In this document: in pieces, positions 18,214 through 55,502 of the stretch
Layout: each line of letters starts with the position of its first letter
Numbering within the stretch: position 1 is the first letter of the stretch
Notes under the pieces: model-generated
The model's database searches: none
Seen by the model: only the letters and a program-made list of their open reading frames with translations
Told to the model about the DNA's origin: nothing
From: a virus
Strand: one strand, 5' to 3'
Length of the DNA stretch: 64,000 bases
Virus record (IMG/VR): IMGVR_UViG_3300025030_000039
Coordinates: 188,878-252,877 of that record
Program-made: the position numbers and the translations under genes

Positions 18214-18645
18214 TTAAATAAAATCATATTTCATAATTATCTTATTATCGATTTCTTTAACAACAGTCCATCCCATTTTTAAATGATATTCTTTTGCAAA
18301 AACTGTATCTAAAAATATAGTTTTATATCCTAATAATTTTGCATATTCAAATCTTTTTTCAGTTAACATCAATCCATATCCATTACCTCTATATTCTGGT
18401 TCAACCCATAACAATAAATTCCAGGGAGATATAGTCCTATCTATTTCATTAATAGTATCAAATAATCCACAACCTATAGGTTTATCATCTATTATCAATA
18501 CATAACAAACTGAATCAGATTCATTATTTAAATACCTTCTAATCTCACTTAAACTATATTCATCATCAACTTGCCAACGTTCTTTCATAATAGATGAAAC
18601 ATAATTAATATACATGTGAGTTAATTTTTCTATTTTAATTTCCAT
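18214..18645 (-). CDS. GNAT-family N-acetyltransferase
   Basis: VLIIDDKPIGCGLF and the WVEPEYRGNGYG (R/QxxGxG/A) acetyl-CoA-binding motif, followed by YAKLLGYKTIFLDT. Confidence 0.7.
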   Translation of the reverse strand: MEIKIEKLTHMYINYVSSIMKERWQVDDEYSLSEIRRYLNNESDSVCYVLIIDDKPIGCGLFDTINEIDRTISPWNLLLWVEPEYRGNGYGLMLTEKRFEYAKLLGYKTIFLDTVFAKEYHLKMGWTVVKEIDNKIIMKYDFI

Positions 18646-20066
18646 TCAAATTTATAATTGCCTGTTCCAAAACATCTATAATATCCCTTATCATGCATTA
18701 TCTCCACTTCAGTCATCAAGGAATCTGCTCCTTCTTTTACCAATTTATCTTTACGATATTTAAACCTATTCTCCCTAATTCCATCTACTACCCACCAATA
18801 ATTCAAACCAGTATGCACTATATATTCAAACCCTAATTTTGTATATAAATTATCTTGCTCATCAACCGTCCAATCACAATCTGCATAACTTACTACTCGT
18901 TCAGGTTTATACTCTTTAATAAAATATTTAAATAAACGACTGGCTCCACCAACAACCGAAGTATTTAATTTATTAGCAAACCGTAAAAGCTCCCATTCAT
19001 TTTCTTTAGCAACTTGATTTAAATTTTTACGTAAGGATCCGAAGGTCATTAATGATACTAACTCACCTTCATAATATAAACCTAATTTAATAGCAGCATT
19101 AGTATTGCCCTGTAAATGGTTCCTATTTAAAAATTCTCTACTATCACCAGAATTAACGGTTTTAATTACACATTTTCTAGCATACACTTTATCAGTAGAT
19201 AAATTTAATAAATTCTTTATTCTTGATTTTACTATATCTCTTTTGTTATACCAAACATCTTCCCATATATGTATTAAATTAATTCCCAATTCTTTGCATC
19301 TATTACTTTTATCTATATGATATTCTTTAGGTTTATTAAATTCATTATGCCAATATACTCCATTATGTTCAAATGCTATATTTTTATCTTCAATATAAAT
19401 ATCAAGTTCTCTATTTTTTAATTCTTTTTTAGAATTAATTCTAAATGGTTTTAAATAAATGTCTTTTATCCAATCTATTAATTCTATTTCAGAATTACTT
19501 TTTCCGTGATTAGGATTACATTTTAAACATGGATTAATATTTATATTTATTCTTCTATATAATAATTGAGAATCTATTATTGATATACTTTTACATTCAA
19601 CACATTCTATTTTTATTTTTTGTTGATCATCCCATTCTATTATTTTAATTTTATCTTTTAATTTTTCTTTAGCAAAAGGAAAATAATATTTATCTTTAAA
19701 ATAATTTGATTGTGTTATATGTTGTACTCCATATCTTTTTAGAACTGTTATTCTTGTTCTTTTTTCTTTTAAAACTATTGCACATTTTCTACTACAGCTA
19801 GAAGAATAACCAGGCATTATACCCATAAATTTAGATGAAGGTATTTTATTACCACATACTTCACATTTTGGAATTTCAGTTTTATCATGTAATGCATGAT
19901 AAAGTTTTTCTTTAAAAGACGTTAATTTTAGATTATTATTTATAGAATATTTTTCTATTTCTAATAATAGATTAGGATAATTATTTTTAAAAAATTCAAT
20001 TCTAGTAGTACTAGATGTAAGTTTTCCGTTTTTTATTAATATTTTATTTAAATCATTTGATAACAT
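18630..20066 (-). CDS. three-part fusion protein: N-terminal Cys clusters, DUF559/Vsr-like (PD-(D/E)XK-type) endonuclease core, C-terminal GNAT-like fold
   Basis: CEVCGNKIP...CSRKC Zn-ribbon-like clusters. ELDIYIEDKNIAFEHNGVYWHN....LGINLIHIWEDVW matches the DUF559 and very-short-patch-repair-like nuclease pattern. The C-terminal GLYYEGELVSLMTFGS...ELLRFA...VVGGASRLFKYFI...YTKLGF looks acyltransferase-like. Confidence 0.5.
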   Translation of the reverse strand: MLSNDLNKILIKNGKLTSSTTRIEFFKNNYPNLLLEIEKYSINNNLKLTSFKEKLYHALHDKTEIPKCEVCGNKIPSSKFMGIMPGYSSSCSRKCAIVLKEKRTRITVLKRYGVQHITQSNYFKDKYYFPFAKEKLKDKIKIIEWDDQQKIKIECVECKSISIIDSQLLYRRINININPCLKCNPNHGKSNSEIELIDWIKDIYLKPFRINSKKELKNRELDIYIEDKNIAFEHNGVYWHNEFNKPKEYHIDKSNRCKELGINLIHIWEDVWYNKRDIVKSRIKNLLNLSTDKVYARKCVIKTVNSGDSREFLNRNHLQGNTNAAIKLGLYYEGELVSLMTFGSLRKNLNQVAKENEWELLRFANKLNTSVVGGASRLFKYFIKEYKPERVVSYADCDWTVDEQDNLYTKLGFEYIVHTGLNYWWVVDGIRENRFKYRKDKLVKEGADSLMTEVEIMHDKGYYRCFGTGNYKFEWKLK

Positions 20067-24296: not shown

Positions 24297-25445
24297 TTAT
24301 TCTATATTTGGATAATTAAAAAGTTTATTTTGATAGTTTTTAAGAATAAGATTTCCATTTTCATCTTTACCTTGATAGTATTCAGGAAGAATAGGAATTT
24401 TACCTCCTCCACCTGGAGCATCAATTACAAAGGTAGGTATAGCATAGCCTGAAGTATTACCTCTAAGATTAAACATTATTTCTATTCCTTTTTCGATTGA
24501 GGTTCTAAAATGTTCTGAACCTAGAATTGGATCACATTGATATAAATAGTACGGTCTAACTCTAACTTTAAGTAATTCATGAAATAATTTTTTAAGAATT
24601 AATGAGTCATCATTAATTCCTTTAAGTAATACCGTTTGAGATCCTAATGGAATTCCAGCATTTGCTAATAAGTTGCAAGCTTGTTTTACTTCAGGAGTAA
24701 TTTCATCTGGATGAGTAAAATGTATACTCATAAAAAGAGGATGATATTTTTGTAGAATATTTATTAGTTTTTTGTTTATTCTTTGTGGAAGTATAACTGG
24801 AACTTTGGTTCCAATTCTTATTATTTCAATATGTTTGATATTTCTAATAGTTGATAATAAATAATCAAGTTGTGAATCAGGTAAAGTTAATGGATCACCG
24901 CCAGAAATTATTACATCTCTTATTTCAGTATGTTCTCGCAAATAATTAAAAGCAGATTCCCAATTATTTAAATTTTTTTCTTTTGCTACAATATGAGAAC
25001 GTGTACAATATCTACAATATGTTGCACAAAAATCTGTTGCTAAAAATAAAACTCTATCTGGATATCGATGTATAATATTAGGTACCGGATTATCTTCATT
25101 TTCATTTAATGGATCTGATAATTCACCCTCATTTATATAATATTCATTTACAATCGGAATAACGCTTTTTCTTAATGATTGCAATGAATTATTTTTATCT
25201 ATTAAGCTAGAATAATAAGGTGTTATTCTTATAGGTAATGAATCTTTATTATTATCATTTATAGATTTTTCATTATCATTTAAATTAAAAAAATCATTTA
25301 ATTGTTTAATGTTTGTAATACTATTTTTTATTTGCCATCGCCAGTCATTCCACTGTTCTTTTGATGTATTAGGAAAATTTTCTTTTAAATATTCTATTGA
25401 TTTTTCACTAGGTTCTATAAGTGAGATATCATCATTTTTGTCCAT
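24297..25445 (-). CDS. KamA-family radical SAM aminomutase-like protein (lysine 2,3-aminomutase / EpmB family)
   Basis: N-terminal WNDWRWQIKN, LATDFCATYCRYCTRS (CX3CX2C in the KamA context) and C-terminal GGGGK. Confidence 0.8.
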   Translation of the reverse strand: MDKNDDISLIEPSEKSIEYLKENFPNTSKEQWNDWRWQIKNSITNIKQLNDFFNLNDNEKSINDNNKDSLPIRITPYYSSLIDKNNSLQSLRKSVIPIVNEYYINEGELSDPLNENEDNPVPNIIHRYPDRVLFLATDFCATYCRYCTRSHIVAKEKNLNNWESAFNYLREHTEIRDVIISGGDPLTLPDSQLDYLLSTIRNIKHIEIIRIGTKVPVILPQRINKKLINILQKYHPLFMSIHFTHPDEITPEVKQACNLLANAGIPLGSQTVLLKGINDDSLILKKLFHELLKVRVRPYYLYQCDPILGSEHFRTSIEKGIEIMFNLRGNTSGYAIPTFVIDAPGGGGKIPILPEYYQGKDENGNLILKNYQNKLFNYPNIE

Positions 25446-40350: not shown

Positions 40351-41673
40351 CTATATTTTGTCTATAAAGACATAATTAAGAACCATACTTTTATGTGAAT
40401 TTTGCTTAAAAACATCAAACTCATGTAAACACTCATCCAATGAAACTCGATATTTCAATCTCGAATTTTTTACAACCTCAATATAAAATCCCTTCCAATC
40501 CTTAAACGATGTAACCATTTCCTTCCATCGGTGTTTCACATCAAAAACTGGATAAAACCCTACCTTGCTTTTCTTTATTCTATACTCGTACCCTCGTCTA
40601 GCAATCTCTATCGACGCATTTACCGCATCAGTATATTCGTATTGCATATTCCCTATAAAACTAGAATACGCTGGATTAACTTCATATAAACCAATACCTA
40701 ATACATTCAATCTTTTAGCCAAATTAGAAATAAATTTATCTCTCTTCCATAAATTTCTATTCTTTCGATTTCCTATTTTATTATGTTTTTGCTCTTTAGT
40801 TAATTTTTGCTTAAACTTCAAATCCTCAATATATACAGTCTTACAACCAAACTGTCTAGCAATCAATGATACAGATTTAGCAATCTCGATCGTTTCAAAA
40901 TTTAATTTATTCTGATAATACTTCATCTTAACAGAATCTGAACTTAATTTTTTACTTAAAATTTTATTAAAAATTAATTTCAAACTAAACTCTTGAGCAT
41001 GAATAACTTTATTATTTTCTAAAACGGAAATTCCAATTGTATCTGGATTCAAATCGATACCTAAATACCTATTTTCATTTAATTGCTTAATCTCTTTATT
41101 CTTAAACTCTTCGAAACTTATATAAACATACTTCATATCAAATCGAACAGAATATGTATATCCATGCTCATTATATTTAACTTCATTTAATTGTTGAAGC
41201 CTAAACAACTCTTTCTTTATATTATTCCTTAAATTAGGTAATTCAAGTTCTATATGTTTAACTTTATTTAACTTAAATATTATTTTATTATTCTCTATAA
41301 TATTCAACTTAAAACTTCTATTTCCTTTTTTTAATACTTCGCCTTGAATATTTAATGGACTCAATCGTTTTAAATCAAATTCTTCTTTAGAAATTTTGTC
41401 TTTTAATCTATTAATAAAATTAAACTTTCCACCAAATACAACTTTAATATCTTCAAACCTCTTCTGCATTGCTTTACCATCCAATATAGCACATTGAACT
41501 AACCAAGAGTTAAGCAAATCAACATTACTTAACTCTTTAGTCAATAATCTTATTTCCTTCTCATTCTTACCCTCGAGAAATCGATTATAACTATACCTTA
41601 CAACATTAGAGTATTGCTTAAGTATAGAAGTTAAATCTTCATCAGTTTTATATGGTAACTTAATTGTTTTCAA
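40351..41673 (-). CDS. tnpB: TnpB-like RuvC-fold nuclease (OrfB; IS605/IS607 accessory protein), zinc-finger-less variant with TTG start
   Basis: RuvC-I is YLGIDLNPDTIGISV. RuvC-II Glu is in KTVYIEDLKF. RuvC-III is VNPAYSS...YTDAVNASIEIARRG. The usual CxxC...CxxC zinc finger between RuvC-II and RuvC-III is absent. The first in-frame codon after two TAA stops that could start translation is TTG at 41673. Confidence 0.8.
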   Translation of the reverse strand: MKTIKLPYKTDEDLTSILKQYSNVVRYSYNRFLEGKNEKEIRLLTKELSNVDLLNSWLVQCAILDGKAMQKRFEDIKVVFGGKFNFINRLKDKISKEEFDLKRLSPLNIQGEVLKKGNRSFKLNIIENNKIIFKLNKVKHIELELPNLRNNIKKELFRLQQLNEVKYNEHGYTYSVRFDMKYVYISFEEFKNKEIKQLNENRYLGIDLNPDTIGISVLENNKVIHAQEFSLKLIFNKILSKKLSSDSVKMKYYQNKLNFETIEIAKSVSLIARQFGCKTVYIEDLKFKQKLTKEQKHNKIGNRKNRNLWKRDKFISNLAKRLNVLGIGLYEVNPAYSSFIGNMQYEYTDAVNASIEIARRGYEYRIKKSKVGFYPVFDVKHRWKEMVTSFKDWKGFYIEVVKNSRLKYRVSLDECLHEFDVFKQNSHKSMVLNYVFIDKI

Positions 41674-41675
41674 TC

Positions 41676-41840
41676 TTATTTATTAATTAATGCTTTTATA
41701 TCTTTATCTTTTATAAAATTCAAACCACCAATCTTTACAAAATTCAACACACCCTTTTCCTTCCAATTATATAAAGTCTGTCTAGTAACATTAAATTCTT
41801 TACATACCTTCGATAGTTTTAATAACTTAAAATCTTCCAT
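41676..41840 (-). CDS. 54-aa MerR-like HTH protein resembling the N-terminus of IS607 TnpA serine recombinase (catalytic domain absent)
   Basis: MEDFKLLKLSKVCKEFNVTRQTLYNWKEKGVLNFVKIGGLNFIKDKDIKALINK matches the IS607 TnpA N-terminal pattern (...TLRRWDREGKL...). Its stop lies 2 nt before the tnpB TTG, in a different frame. Confidence 0.55.
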   Translation of the reverse strand: MEDFKLLKLSKVCKEFNVTRQTLYNWKEKGVLNFVKIGGLNFIKDKDIKALINK

Positions 41841-43398: not shown

Positions 43399-43740
43399 AT
43401 GCTAAAACCTGAACATATATATTTTCATATTTTAGATTCAGATATAATAGGTCATATAGAAGTCGTTATAACTCCTATTGAAATATTTAATAAAGTTAAG
43501 TTTATTTCAAGCATAAAAACATATCCTGAACTTAAAAATATTTTTAATGAATTAGAATTAGAATTTATTGATTCTTCAAGACTTATTCATAATGGTATTT
43601 TAACAAAAGAAGAATTAAATGATAAAATGCTTTCTTTAGGATTTAAAACAAACGAAGAATTTAAAGAAATAACAGAAAGTTTTTTTGAAATTGAATACGT
43701 TCCAAAATCAATTGAAGAATTAAAAAATTTAATAAAATGA
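43399..43740 (+). CDS. hypothetical protein (113 aa)
   Basis: Track ORF. Confidence 0.4.
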   Translation: MLKPEHIYFHILDSDIIGHIEVVITPIEIFNKVKFISSIKTYPELKNIFNELELEFIDSSRLIHNGILTKEELNDKMLSLGFKTNEEFKEITESFFEIEYVPKSIEELKNLIK

Positions 43741-43970
43741 AAATATTATTTTTACTTTTAAGTATTATTATTTTAACATCTTGTAGTGTATCAACATCAA
43801 AAATTGATGCTAATAAATTTAATACTAATGATATTACATATATAGAAGATACTAGAACTGGTGTATGTTATGCTATAATAGCTGTTCAAAAAGGTGGAAA
43901 TTTTGAACAAAATGGAATTGGATTTACAGAAGTTCCTTGTGATAAAGTAAAAGAATATTTAAATAAATAA
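43737..43970 (+). CDS. lipoprotein (MKILFLLLSIIILTSCS)
   Basis: Signal peptide plus lipobox Cys. Confidence 0.45.
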   Translation: MKILFLLLSIIILTSCSVSTSKIDANKFNTNDITYIEDTRTGVCYAIIAVQKGGNFEQNGIGFTEVPCDKVKEYLNK

Positions 43971-44011
43971 ACAATATTTATTAATCTCATATAAATTTAA
44001 AATAATTACAT

Positions 44012-44452
44012 ATGAAAATTGCTAAAGGTCTTAAAATAAAAAATGAGTTAAAAATAAAATTATCTCATCTTCAATCTCTTTTAATACAACATAATTCTTC
44101 AATCGTTGGATCAACTAATGATTATAATACAGAAGAAGTATTAAAAGAATATATTGAGGTAAGAGATAAACTTATTTTACTTAAAACAAATTTACAAAAG
44201 GCTACTTTACCTATTTATCAAAAAATATTTCGTATTTCTGAATTGAAAGCTACAATTAAAGCGTTAAGAAGTATGAATACAATATCTGGTAAAACAGTTA
44301 ATTCTAGATATGGCGGTAGTGAAGTTATTGAAAATATAGCAACAATTGGTAACTTAGCTGTCGATAAAAAAGTTAAAGATATTGAATTTGAAATTTCAAA
44401 TTTACAAGATGAAATTGATGAATTCAACAATACTACTAATTTTGAATTTTAA
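44012..44452 (+). CDS. coiled-coil hypothetical protein (146 aa)
   Basis: Track ORF. Confidence 0.4.
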   Translation: MKIAKGLKIKNELKIKLSHLQSLLIQHNSSIVGSTNDYNTEEVLKEYIEVRDKLILLKTNLQKATLPIYQKIFRISELKATIKALRSMNTISGKTVNSRYGGSEVIENIATIGNLAVDKKVKDIEFEISNLQDEIDEFNNTTNFEF

Positions 44453-44677
44453 TTTATTATTGGTATAGGGAACAGCGAAAGTGATTAATTATTACATTAC
44501 CCAGCAAGGTAAAACTTAAATTCTGACATTTAGATAACGTTAAAGATAATGAATTCAAAATTTATTCTTTATAATTCAAATATTCAAAATTTAAAATTTA
44601 AAAATCATCTTTGTAAATTTTAATTATTATTAGCTGTTTCCGTTTTTAAAACAAATAAATATATAAATAATAAAATA

Positions 44678-44922
44678 ATGAACAAGATACAGCGATGGAG
44701 TTATCCAAAAGTGTATACTAAATTAAATTTATTGGCTGAGGAAGAAGGTTTCTTTATTAAGCAGGTGAATCCAGCATATACTAGTCAGACTTGTTCAGAA
44801 TGCGGGGAATATAGATAAAGAGAGTCCGTAAAGGTGAGGTTTATTTATGTTCGAGCTGTAAAATAGAGATTAATACAGCATTGAATATTTTGCATAGAGG
44901 AGTATATGGTCCCTCTAATTAA
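44678..44922 (+). pseudogene. tnpB: degraded C-terminal fragment of a second TnpB (retains the zinc finger and RuvC-III motif, with an in-frame stop and a frameshift)
   Basis: Reading across one stop and one frame change gives ...IQRWSYPKVYTKLNLLAEEEGFFIKQVNPAYTSQTCSECG(EYR*) then ...RKGEVYLCSSCKIEINTALNILHRG. This holds the canonical TnpB VNPAYTSQTCSxCG and NxAxNIL.RG motifs. Confidence 0.65.
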
Positions 44923-44985
44923 AAATAATTATAATAAATACAAATTATGCGATTTAAAATATCAAATACTGGCAAAGGAGCATTC

Positions 44986-45016
44986 CTTTTTTCTGTCTCG
45001 TAAAGAAACAGAAAAA
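44986..45016 (+). other. imperfect palindrome / hairpin downstream of the TnpB remnant (TTTTTTCTGTCTCG-TAAA-GAAACAGAAAAA)
   Basis: Seen directly in the sequence. It could be a relic right-end or omega-RNA scaffold, or a terminator. Confidence 0.3.
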
Positions 45017-45026
45017 TAAATGCTTT

Positions 45027-45518
45027 ATGGGAAAAACTTACATTCATATTCAAAAAGCTAAACATGGTTTGGCTTATATTGAATTTAATGATTATTTAGA
45101 ATTAAATAATGAATATTATGAGAAACTAGATCAAATTTATGATTCATTTGGATTGTATTCTAAATATTTACGACATTGTCATAGAAGTGGGGAAACAGAT
45201 TGGTTATTTACAACTCGTATTAAAAAACGAAATAAGATTGCTAATAAAGATATGCAATCACAGTTGAATGATTATTATGGAATTGAAGAAAAGAATTTAA
45301 ACAAATTTAGAGATAAATCACTCAAAGTATTTCAACTTAAAAAGAAATATGGTATACCATCATCTTATAGTTATTTTACTTTTAGTAAAAAATTCTCAAC
45401 ATTTAAAGGAGCTTTAAGAGCTGGAAAATCATCTATTAAAAATAATAGATATTTTGAATTTGAAATATTAGAAAATAATAAAATAATTTATAAAGAAAAT
45501 AAAAATGGAAGAAATTGA
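45027..45518 (+). CDS. hypothetical protein (163 aa)
   Basis: Track ORF. Confidence 0.45.
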   Translation: MGKTYIHIQKAKHGLAYIEFNDYLELNNEYYEKLDQIYDSFGLYSKYLRHCHRSGETDWLFTTRIKKRNKIANKDMQSQLNDYYGIEEKNLNKFRDKSLKVFQLKKKYGIPSSYSYFTFSKKFSTFKGALRAGKSSIKNNRYFEFEILENNKIIYKENKNGRN

Positions 45519-45969
45519 AGATTTAAAATTTGAATCAGAATTAAATAAAAAAAATACTTTAGAGGAAGTAAAAGAGTATTATGAACAAATTTATGCTAAA
45601 AGATTAACTAGTAGTTATACTATTAATATTGGAGGTCCTATATACAATAAATATTTAGTTAACTATTTAAAAAATAAAGTAAAATGGAGTGGTAAAGAAA
45701 TTTTATTTCTTAATACTTTAGTTAATAATTTAGAAGTAAATTTATCTAAAGATAATTTCAAATTACCTGCTATGTTTGTTGAAGGAATTGATCAATTTTT
45801 ATCTCGTCATGAGGGCTTTGGATGCGCTAGTGGTGATAAAATATTTAATATATTTGTGTCATTACAAAATGTAGTTTTATATTTAACAGAATTACAAAAT
45901 GAATTAAAAGCAACAAAAAATAAATTAATTCAATTAGAGACAGAACGAGCAAAAGTACAGATGGTTTAA
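45505..45969 (+). CDS. hypothetical protein (154 aa)
   Basis: Track ORF. Confidence 0.45.
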   Translation: MEEIEDLKFESELNKKNTLEEVKEYYEQIYAKRLTSSYTINIGGPIYNKYLVNYLKNKVKWSGKEILFLNTLVNNLEVNLSKDNFKLPAMFVEGIDQFLSRHEGFGCASGDKIFNIFVSLQNVVLYLTELQNELKATKNKLIQLETERAKVQMV

Positions 45970-46014
45970 TAAAGTACGAATTACGAAAAACGAATACTTA
46001 AAACAGTCAAAATA

Positions 46015-46353
46015 ATGGATGAAAAAGAGTTAAAAGAAAAAATTAAAAATGAATTAGTAGGAGTTGAACTTAAAAAAATAATTCCATCAACTACTAGAGT
46101 GCAAGCTGTTCATCTTAAAATTAATGGTACTAATTATCAAGTTACAGTTTCTCCATTACCTAGATTATGGACCGAAACAGCGGCTTATGAAGCAACAAGA
46201 ACTGGAAGAGTTTTAGATTTTACAAAGTCGTTCTTTAAATTCCAAGGTGATGATATATTTGAAGGTATTAAAGAATTATCTAATTGCTTAAATGGATTAC
46301 CATTTAAAAATGAAAATAATACTAAACCATTATTAGATTTTAAACTAAAATAA
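46015..46353 (+). CDS. hypothetical protein (112 aa)
   Basis: Track ORF. Confidence 0.4.
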   Translation: MDEKELKEKIKNELVGVELKKIIPSTTRVQAVHLKINGTNYQVTVSPLPRLWTETAAYEATRTGRVLDFTKSFFKFQGDDIFEGIKELSNCLNGLPFKNENNTKPLLDFKLK

Positions 46354-46391
46354 ATATGAAAATTTTTAAACGACATACCCTCATAATTAGA

Positions 46392-46422
46392 GGAGAATAA
46401 TTAGTTCCCTATATTATTCTCC
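46392..46422 (+). terminator. perfect 10-bp stem hairpin (GGAGAATAAT-11 nt-ATTATTCTCC) before a rare strong Shine-Dalgarno (AAGGAGG)
   Basis: Seen directly in the sequence. It lies between 46015-46353 and 46446-46727. No U-tract follows, so it may be regulatory rather than a terminator. Confidence 0.35.
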
Positions 46423-55127: not shown

Positions 55128-55502
55128 ATGGAAAAATTAAAAGATCTGGAAAAATTAAAAGATTTTATAACAGAAGATGATTTGAATAAATTTAAAGAAG
55201 GTGTAATTGAAACAGCAAGAGAAAATCTTAGAAGAGATAAACAATTATTACCTATTATTCATTTTTTATTCATTAAAGATAATAAATTAGCAGTTGCATT
55301 AATGCCAGTAAATGATTTTATGATTAATGATCAAACAAAAGATATAATGGTTCACTTAGTTAAAAAAACTATTGATGAATTTAATGTATTTGCATTAATT
55401 ATGATACAAGAAGCATGGCTCAGTTCTATTAATATTAATGAAAAAGATACATATCAAGGAAGGCCTTCAGAAGATCCAAATCGTAATTTTCAAATATGCT
55501 AA
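55128..55502 (+). CDS. hypothetical protein (124 aa)
   Basis: Track ORF. Confidence 0.4.
   Translation: MEKLKDLEKLKDFITEDDLNKFKEGVIETARENLRRDKQLLPIIHFLFIKDNKLAVALMPVNDFMINDQTKDIMVHLVKKTIDEFNVFALIMIQEAWLSSININEKDTYQGRPSEDPNRNFQIC

Follow-up and report, generated by a model that had tools for sequence, protein, structure and literature searches.

The stretch of phage DNA analysed here (64,000 nucleotides, referred to below as the window) carries the 3′ end of an IS607-type tnpB gene, and this relic is very probably all that is left of a third, now dead copy of an IS607-type tnpB/ωRNA element, of which two intact copies, B and C, lie in the same genome. In the reconstruction that we favour, the element would have been inserted at the site, or copied there by recombination-based homing, as a working gene. 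It would then have evolved under coding constraint, and a recent deletion of ~900 bp on the 5′ side, together with slippage indels, would have destroyed it. Today the relic is most likely non-functional DNA that would be transcribed by read-through only.

Results

Source genome and locus

The window was 100% identical over positions 43400–46400 to LR756500.1, an uncultured phage assembly of 462,018 bp without annotation; window positions are the positions of that record minus 388,073. The G+C content of the window and of the phage is 24%. At 55486 the window lacks 123 nt of the record (443560–443682), and the two are otherwise identical over the compared stretches. A literature search for the accession LR756500.1 returned no paper. 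The locus and the copies compared are as follows.

44452/45027: intergenic site holding the relic, between two phage genes
44647–44955, + strand: relic proper, with the last part (codons ~299–392) of an IS607-type tnpB and a ~33-nt right-end tail (blastn, three-way alignment with B and C, tblastn)
44923–44955, + strand: right-end tail shared with copy B only, probable right-end boundary (one pairwise comparison of AT-rich sequence)
Record 335589–334411: copy B, intact paralog of 392 aa, complete ORF (tblastn/blastn of the whole phage genome)
Record 329881–328676, − strand: copy C, intact paralog of 401 aa, complete ORF (same searches)

Both flanking genes lie on the relic's strand (+), and the downstream one starts at 45027. 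A search of the phage collection for relatives sharing the locus gave the LR756500.1 record alone, and IMG/VR queried with both flanking proteins gave either nothing or ~30%-identical homologs without synteny. These searches thus brought up no close relative of the phage, with the site either empty or intact. Elsewhere in the window, a radical-SAM, lysine-2,3-aminomutase-like gene (24297–25445, − strand; PF04055 and PF12544) and a gene whose 478-aa product weakly matches REase_MTES_1575 and the Mom family (18630–20066, − strand) are candidates for phage auxiliary or DNA-modification functions.

The relic is a truncated and frameshifted TnpB

An earlier note on this DNA had proposed a degraded TnpB copy here, and the TnpB peptide strings that it quoted are present. 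The relic corresponds to residues 299–392 of 392, with tblastn covering residues 299–351 and 355–392 of copy B. The joined relic peptide matched Pfam PF07282 (Cas12f1-like TNB, formerly OrfB_Zn_ribbon) with an E value of 1.6e-12 (47.8 bits against a cut-off of 26.3) and PHROG 506 ‘transposase’ with an E value of 1.5e-12. Moreover, a profile of 36 family members matched the relic's two frames between 44647 and 44922 with E values of 1.1e-25 and 6.6e-11. Chance resemblance to TnpB is excluded. The same profile found no match upstream of the relic, and blastn, tblastn and profile searches detected no TnpB similarity 5′ of 44647 in any frame; compared with the intact paralogs, everything 5′ of about 44647 (codon ~299) is missing, in agreement with the proposal that all upstream domains are gone. 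The damage and the leftover reading frames are listed below.

44678–44818, + strand: residual 46-codon ORF (frame A), which begins at a Met inside the ancestral gene, runs to the first CxxC and ends at a frameshift-made TAA; translation MNKIQRWSYPKVYTKLNLLAEEEGFFIKQVNPAYTSQTCSECGEYR and stop
44804–44807, + strand: +1 G insertion in a G run (GGGG in the relic, GGG in copy B)
44826–44827, + strand: +1 C insertion in the loop of the Zn-finger hairpin (alignment with paralogs)
44827–44922, + strand: last reading frame, RKGEVYLCSSCKIEINTALNILHRGVYGPSN and stop, which contains the second CxxC and ends at the gene's original stop codon
44871–44872, + strand: junction of a 12-nt deletion that removed the D-A-D-Y codons (third RuvC catalytic Asp) and the H7/H8 tip

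The in-frame TAA and the frame break of the earlier note are therefore real in the sequence, but the TAA (44816–44818) arises from the +1 G shift at 44804–44807 and not from a point mutation, and a second +1 insertion and the 12-nt deletion have to be added to the single frameshift described. Likewise, the zinc finger was said to be retained. The codons of both CxxC motifs do survive (CSEC and CSSC), but the two +1 insertions split them into different frames, so that the CxxC...CxxC finger is not in one frame. The RuvC D-E-D triad is absent: the regions of D225 and E291 are missing, and the codons of D373 and D375, both invariant in this TnpB family, are deleted. The relic has neither a full-length ORF of ~350–450 aa, as in its paralogs of 392 and 401 aa, nor the N-terminal WED/REC part. 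Because WED/REC and RuvC-I/II are gone, the finger is frame-split and the RuvC-III aspartate is deleted, the relic is unable to make a nuclease.

Intact sister copies and the timing of decay

Copies B and C lie ~100 kb from the relic, outside the window, and both carry the family-invariant residues D225, E291 and D373/D375. At the DNA level, the relic is 88% identical to them (blastn; record 334696–334377 in B and 328983–328699 in C). The homology runs from ~44647 to 44926 against copy C and to ~44955 against copy B, and nowhere beyond. The genes flanking the relic, B and C are not homologous, and segmental duplication as the origin of the relic is ruled out by these unrelated flanks.

Relative to B and C, the relic branch carries 14 substitutions, nine of which are synonymous third-position changes (P = 0.017 against neutrality). 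This argues that the relic diverged mostly while it was still a functional gene with its coding frame under selection, and that the decay is recent.

Copy C has changes of its own. Of the five changes specific to its lineage within the last 94 codons, four alter the amino acid, among them CxxCG to CxxCA and Y to C. In addition, it has lost B's stop codon and right-end tail, the divergence beginning at the stop, and its ORF is nine codons longer. It looks as if copy C were beginning to decay.

The TnpB family and its IS607 arrangement

At E ≤ 0.001, 603 relatives of copy B were found in the database, and the best 120 of these 603 are about 366–430 aa long; the closest relatives among the matches listed share ~60% amino-acid identity with it. 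In three of the closest relatives (L255, L258 and L259), tnpB lies directly behind, and overlaps by 8 nt, the gene for a 197–198-aa serine recombinase TnpA (PF00239 and HTH), which identifies the IS607 arrangement. TnpA-less derivatives among the relatives retain a ~100-nt left end. At the relic, positions 44440–44660 showed no similarity to the relatives' conserved left-end motif. A search of the phage genome for an intact TnpA found none; it holds HTH fragments only, at places other than the relic, B or C.

This TnpB family is common in phage contigs of IMG/VR, where 86 stretches were confirmed as relatives by tblastn and 80 loci were kept, often with several copies per contig. Such same-contig copies lose their likeness 5–65 nt past the stop codon, indicating that the right end lies just behind the gene. 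The likeness between the relic and copy B stops 34–38 nt past the stop, a position in keeping with that range. Of the whole relic, the right-end tail has diverged most from copy B, and the terminal motif AGTAAT(T)ATA of B and relatives is altered in it.

Several features of the relatives were recorded in passing. Five diverged TnpB copies (L013, L015, L016, L059 and L067), about 88% identical to each other where compared, have an in-frame TGA at tnpB codon 373/374, in the DAD[x]NA motif, and a C-terminus that is normal beyond it, which suggests that TGA may be read as an amino acid in these phages or their hosts. Four bacterial and archaeal contigs (L130, L118, L121 and L134) match the C-terminal 55–105 residues only, at 56–61% identity, and in L130 the sequence upstream of the match is unrelated; 3′-terminal relics of this family thus seem to recur in other genomes. 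In L256 (1–802, − strand), an IS607 TnpA-TnpB element adjoins a family-B DNA polymerase gene with an intein-splicing domain.

A covarying scaffold lies inside the coding sequence

In this family, the ωRNA-like scaffold is made up of covarying helices that lie within the final ~250 nt of the ORF; in copies B and C, this segment folds as a series of hairpins. RNAalifold on B, C and eight relatives gave nine helices. In this subfamily of 10, 93.8% of cells were paired, against 37–43% with the partners slid, and compensatory changes were present in 17 of 68 pairs; none of 500 shuffles reached the observed values. Among 95 wider relatives, whose alignment was fitted to the covariance model and therefore favours these figures, 81.6% of cells were paired (39–45% slid) and 27 of 33 pairs covaried. 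A plain MAFFT alignment of the broad family let RNAalifold recover the last hairpin only, so that the subfamily and model-guided alignments were needed. The helices that can be followed in the relic are given below.

44679–44797, + strand: helix H1 (44679–44685 with 44791–44797), enclosing the central H2–H4 (RNAalifold consensus, pair counts)
44809–44850, + strand: ‘Zn-finger hairpin’ H5/H6 (9-bp core, 44809–44817 with 44842–44850), with compensatory changes, intact in the relic
44857–44894, + strand: helix H7 (44857–44865 with 44886–44894), outer stem kept with one U-A changed to U-G, inner H8 deleted
44895–44917, + strand: terminal hairpin H9, AGAGGAG...CCCUCU, the same as in the intact copies
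44956–44975, + strand: putative guide, should the relic make an ωRNA; its position follows from the right-end boundary

In the hairpin between the CxxC motifs, amino-acid changes follow the pairing across relatives: its arms are AUAGAUAAA/UUUAUUUAU in copy B, UUCAUAAAG/CUUUAUGAA in L253, CAUUUGUA/UACGAAUG in L075 and GCAUUGA/UCAGUGC in L262. H9 is 98.6% paired across the 95 relatives, with six of its seven pairs covarying. Compared with copy B, the relic keeps all 49 pairs of H1, H4–H7 and H9 (among them 7/7 in H1 and 14/14 in H4), and the five pairs of H8 are lost to the 12-nt deletion.

A covariance model for the final 146 nt, constructed from the eight non-phage relatives only, gave 123.6 bits for copy B, 117.6 bits for copy C and 74.2 bits (E = 2e-13) for the relic, with no other match in the 462 kb. 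Rfam gave no gathering-threshold match in the window and no relevant match at E ≤ 10 in the relic or copy B; RAGATH-18 and other ωRNA-type families of Rfam likewise gave no match for these two.

A second TnpB family without zinc finger

The earlier note had further held that the relic differs in subtype from an intact TnpB copy, and that the phage lineage therefore acquired at least two TnpB families. This view gained support from the following gene.

40351–41673, − strand: 440-aa TnpB-like gene of the PF27229 family (hhalign of its RuvC half to the family profile)

Its alignment to the TnpB family profile had a probability of 92.7% (E = 4e-7). The gene is intact and keeps D, E and D (GIDLN, IEDLK and DAVNAS), with a short linker in place of the Zn finger; it has a second copy in the phage genome and more than 1,500 relatives carrying PF27229. 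Both families are RuvC-type TnpB relatives linked to IS607, the 440-aa gene by way of a neighbouring ORF derived from TnpA, but PF27229 is separate and lacks the Zn finger, and blastn found no DNA similarity between the 440-aa gene and the relic. As the 440-aa gene is a Zn-finger-less TnpB relative, and the Zn-finger family is present intact as B and C, the phage carries two TnpB families.

Directly upstream of the 440-aa gene lies a 54-aa HTH-only ORF (41676–41840, − strand; PF12728, E = 2e-6) that shares 52% identity with the DNA-binding domain at the N-terminus of the IS607 serine recombinase TnpA. The pair of HTH ORF and Zn-finger-less gene occurs again at record 367401–368870, and a third TnpA remnant, more complete but broken, lies at record 382779–383144. 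It appears that the recombinase catalytic domain was lost and the HTH kept beside the 440-aa TnpB-like gene.

Flanking repeats lie outside the element

An inverted pair and a palindrome near the relic had been put forward as possible remnants of the transposon ends or of the ωRNA scaffold. Both exist.

44468–44641: inverted pair GGGAACAGC (44468–44476) and GCTGTTTCC (44633–44641), 8/9 complementary, with 156 nt of AT-rich filler between, outside the homology to B and C
44977–45026 (or 44976–45029), + strand: extended hairpin around the palindrome (44988–44999 with 45005–45016, 11/12 complementary), in flanking phage DNA just before the gene starting at 45027

They are mildly unusual: of 200-nt segments drawn at random from the phage genome, 4.5% contain a comparable inverted repeat with G+C in it, and the folding z values are −3.2 for the inverted-pair region and −4.2 for the palindrome hairpin. 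Their assignment to the element was not borne out, because both lie outside the homology at 44647–44955; the scaffold, in turn, lies inside the relic. The inverted pair and its filler were rejected as a left end, having no similarity to IS607 left ends, and the 9-mers of the pair are found almost only at the relic locus. The palindrome, which does not resemble those left ends either, was rejected as a repeated phage motif or a right-end hairpin: the 462-kb genome contains it only once, and it is missing behind copies B and C. The extended hairpin pairs AGGAGCAU with AUGCUUU, setting an AGGAG against the bases directly in front of the ATG at 45027. The simplest reading assigns this hairpin to the downstream phage gene, as a possible structure for translational control or termination.

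Discussion

Remnant or guide RNA

The intactness of the scaffold is the counterpoint to a dead remnant. The 5′ breakpoint at 44647 falls ~32 nt before the first helix, and the indels avoid stems or shorten a hairpin tip, the two insertions lying in a junction and a loop. One could therefore suppose that the relic is a guide-RNA gene without a nuclease of its own, whose ωRNA is bound and processed in trans by the TnpB of B and C. This would provide the phage with a third guide, formed by the ~20 nt that follow 44955 and aimed at genomes with an uninterrupted 44452/45027 site, for example those of competing phages. We consider this unlikely. The relic does span the whole covarying scaffold and little else, every helix except H8 is intact, the covariance model still gives it 74 bits, and its location on the strand of both flanking genes makes transcription likely. 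Furthermore, protein-less ωRNA elements that need TnpB in trans are discussed for IS200/IS605 in a preprint (bioRxiv 10.1101/2023.03.14.532601).

On the other hand, the coding frame was selected until recently, so that an intact structure may only mean youth; H8 is lost, and the right-end tail is the most diverged part against copy B. A promoter and terminator scan at the relic gave fewer promoter-like sites than shuffled sequence and no terminator, and when the guides predicted for the relic and for copies B and C were compared with the phage genome, no target off their own loci was found. What speaks for a guide RNA is thus the structural integrity together with a conceptual precedent, and on these the idea seems doubtful. 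With one genome and 14 substitutions, the retained scaffold fits selection for an RNA function and recent decay equally well; the substitution pattern favours recency.

Small gene or assembly artefact

Very improbable is a functional small protein that merely resembles TnpB, encoded by the 46-aa ORF at 44678–44818 or a 37-aa ORF at 44906–45019, a case that the earlier note itself had raised. Both ORFs have ATG starts, but the similarity to B and C continues past the ORF stop, in shifted frames and in DNA that stays 88% alike, the 46-aa product would contain half a Zn finger, and the best 120 of the 603 matches listed include no small-protein homologs. Just as hard to credit is an assembly or sequencing artefact, with homopolymer-error frameshifts and a 5′ mis-join among tnpB copies: one indel does fall in a G run, LR756500.1 is a metagenomic assembly and a 123-nt indel separates window and GenBank record elsewhere, but 14 differing sites and the 12-nt deletion against both other copies mark a distinct locus, window and record agree exactly over 43400–46400, and a mis-join does not explain unique flanks on both sides.

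Comparison with known systems

As the remnant of a tnpB/ωRNA element, the relic is best compared with IS607-family TnpB proteins, of which guide-RNA systems are known: ISFba1 TnpB with a reRNA derived from RAGATH-18 (Cell Res 2024, PMC11061315) and IStron TnpB (bioRxiv 10.1101/2023.11.20.567912). The likeness consists of a ~390-aa TnpB with a RuvC domain and a CxxC...CxxC finger, a probable right end shortly after the gene and, in the closest relatives, a position of tnpB directly behind a serine-recombinase TnpA. In contrast to ISFba1, whose scaffold is wholly downstream of the ORF (PMC11061315), only ~30–60 nt follow the stop codon in the relic's clade and the covarying helices are inside the ORF. 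The relic itself further differs from IS607 systems as a truncated pseudogene in a phage without intact TnpA and with no RAGATH-18 match.

The ISDra2 TnpB-ωRNA of IS200/IS605 (Karvelis 2021, PMC8612924) resembles the relic's family in that the scaffold overlaps the tnpB 3′ end and the nuclease has the same fold (PDB 8bf8/8h1j match, E = 3e-9); a guide in the relic's family would also, as in ISDra2, lie behind the right end. However, the IS200/IS605 partner is a Y1 transposase, whereas that of the relic's clade is a serine recombinase, and the relic's family is nearer to solved Cas12f-like chains (8j3r and 7wju, E ~ 1e-22) than to ISDra2. PATE-like elements (Meers et al., bioRxiv 10.1101/2023.03.14.532601) resemble the relic, with its probable right end, as DNA that has a right end and an ωRNA region but no nuclease, so that any activity would require TnpB in trans. 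PATEs keep both ends and are mobilisable; the relic, in contrast, has no left end and one damaged helix, and its phage has no intact TnpA.

What the relic means

Truncated IS copies are common, and the relic itself is of little weight; it adds a pseudogene annotation to an unannotated huge-phage record. Of modest wider use is that its IS607-type clade, unlike the RAGATH-18 clade, carries the scaffold inside the coding sequence. No Rfam model covers this clade, and the covariance model from the present analysis could serve to annotate it. Should the relic after all act as a guide RNA, it would illustrate how nuclease and guide can become uncoupled in nature, and would be a step from a selfish transposon to a multi-guide, CRISPR-array-like arrangement. 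Together with copies B and C, the relic shows the TnpB elements of one phage at different degrees of decay, B being intact, C slipping and the relic truncated, in a genome without an intact transposase; this series fits the persistence of TnpB without TnpA.
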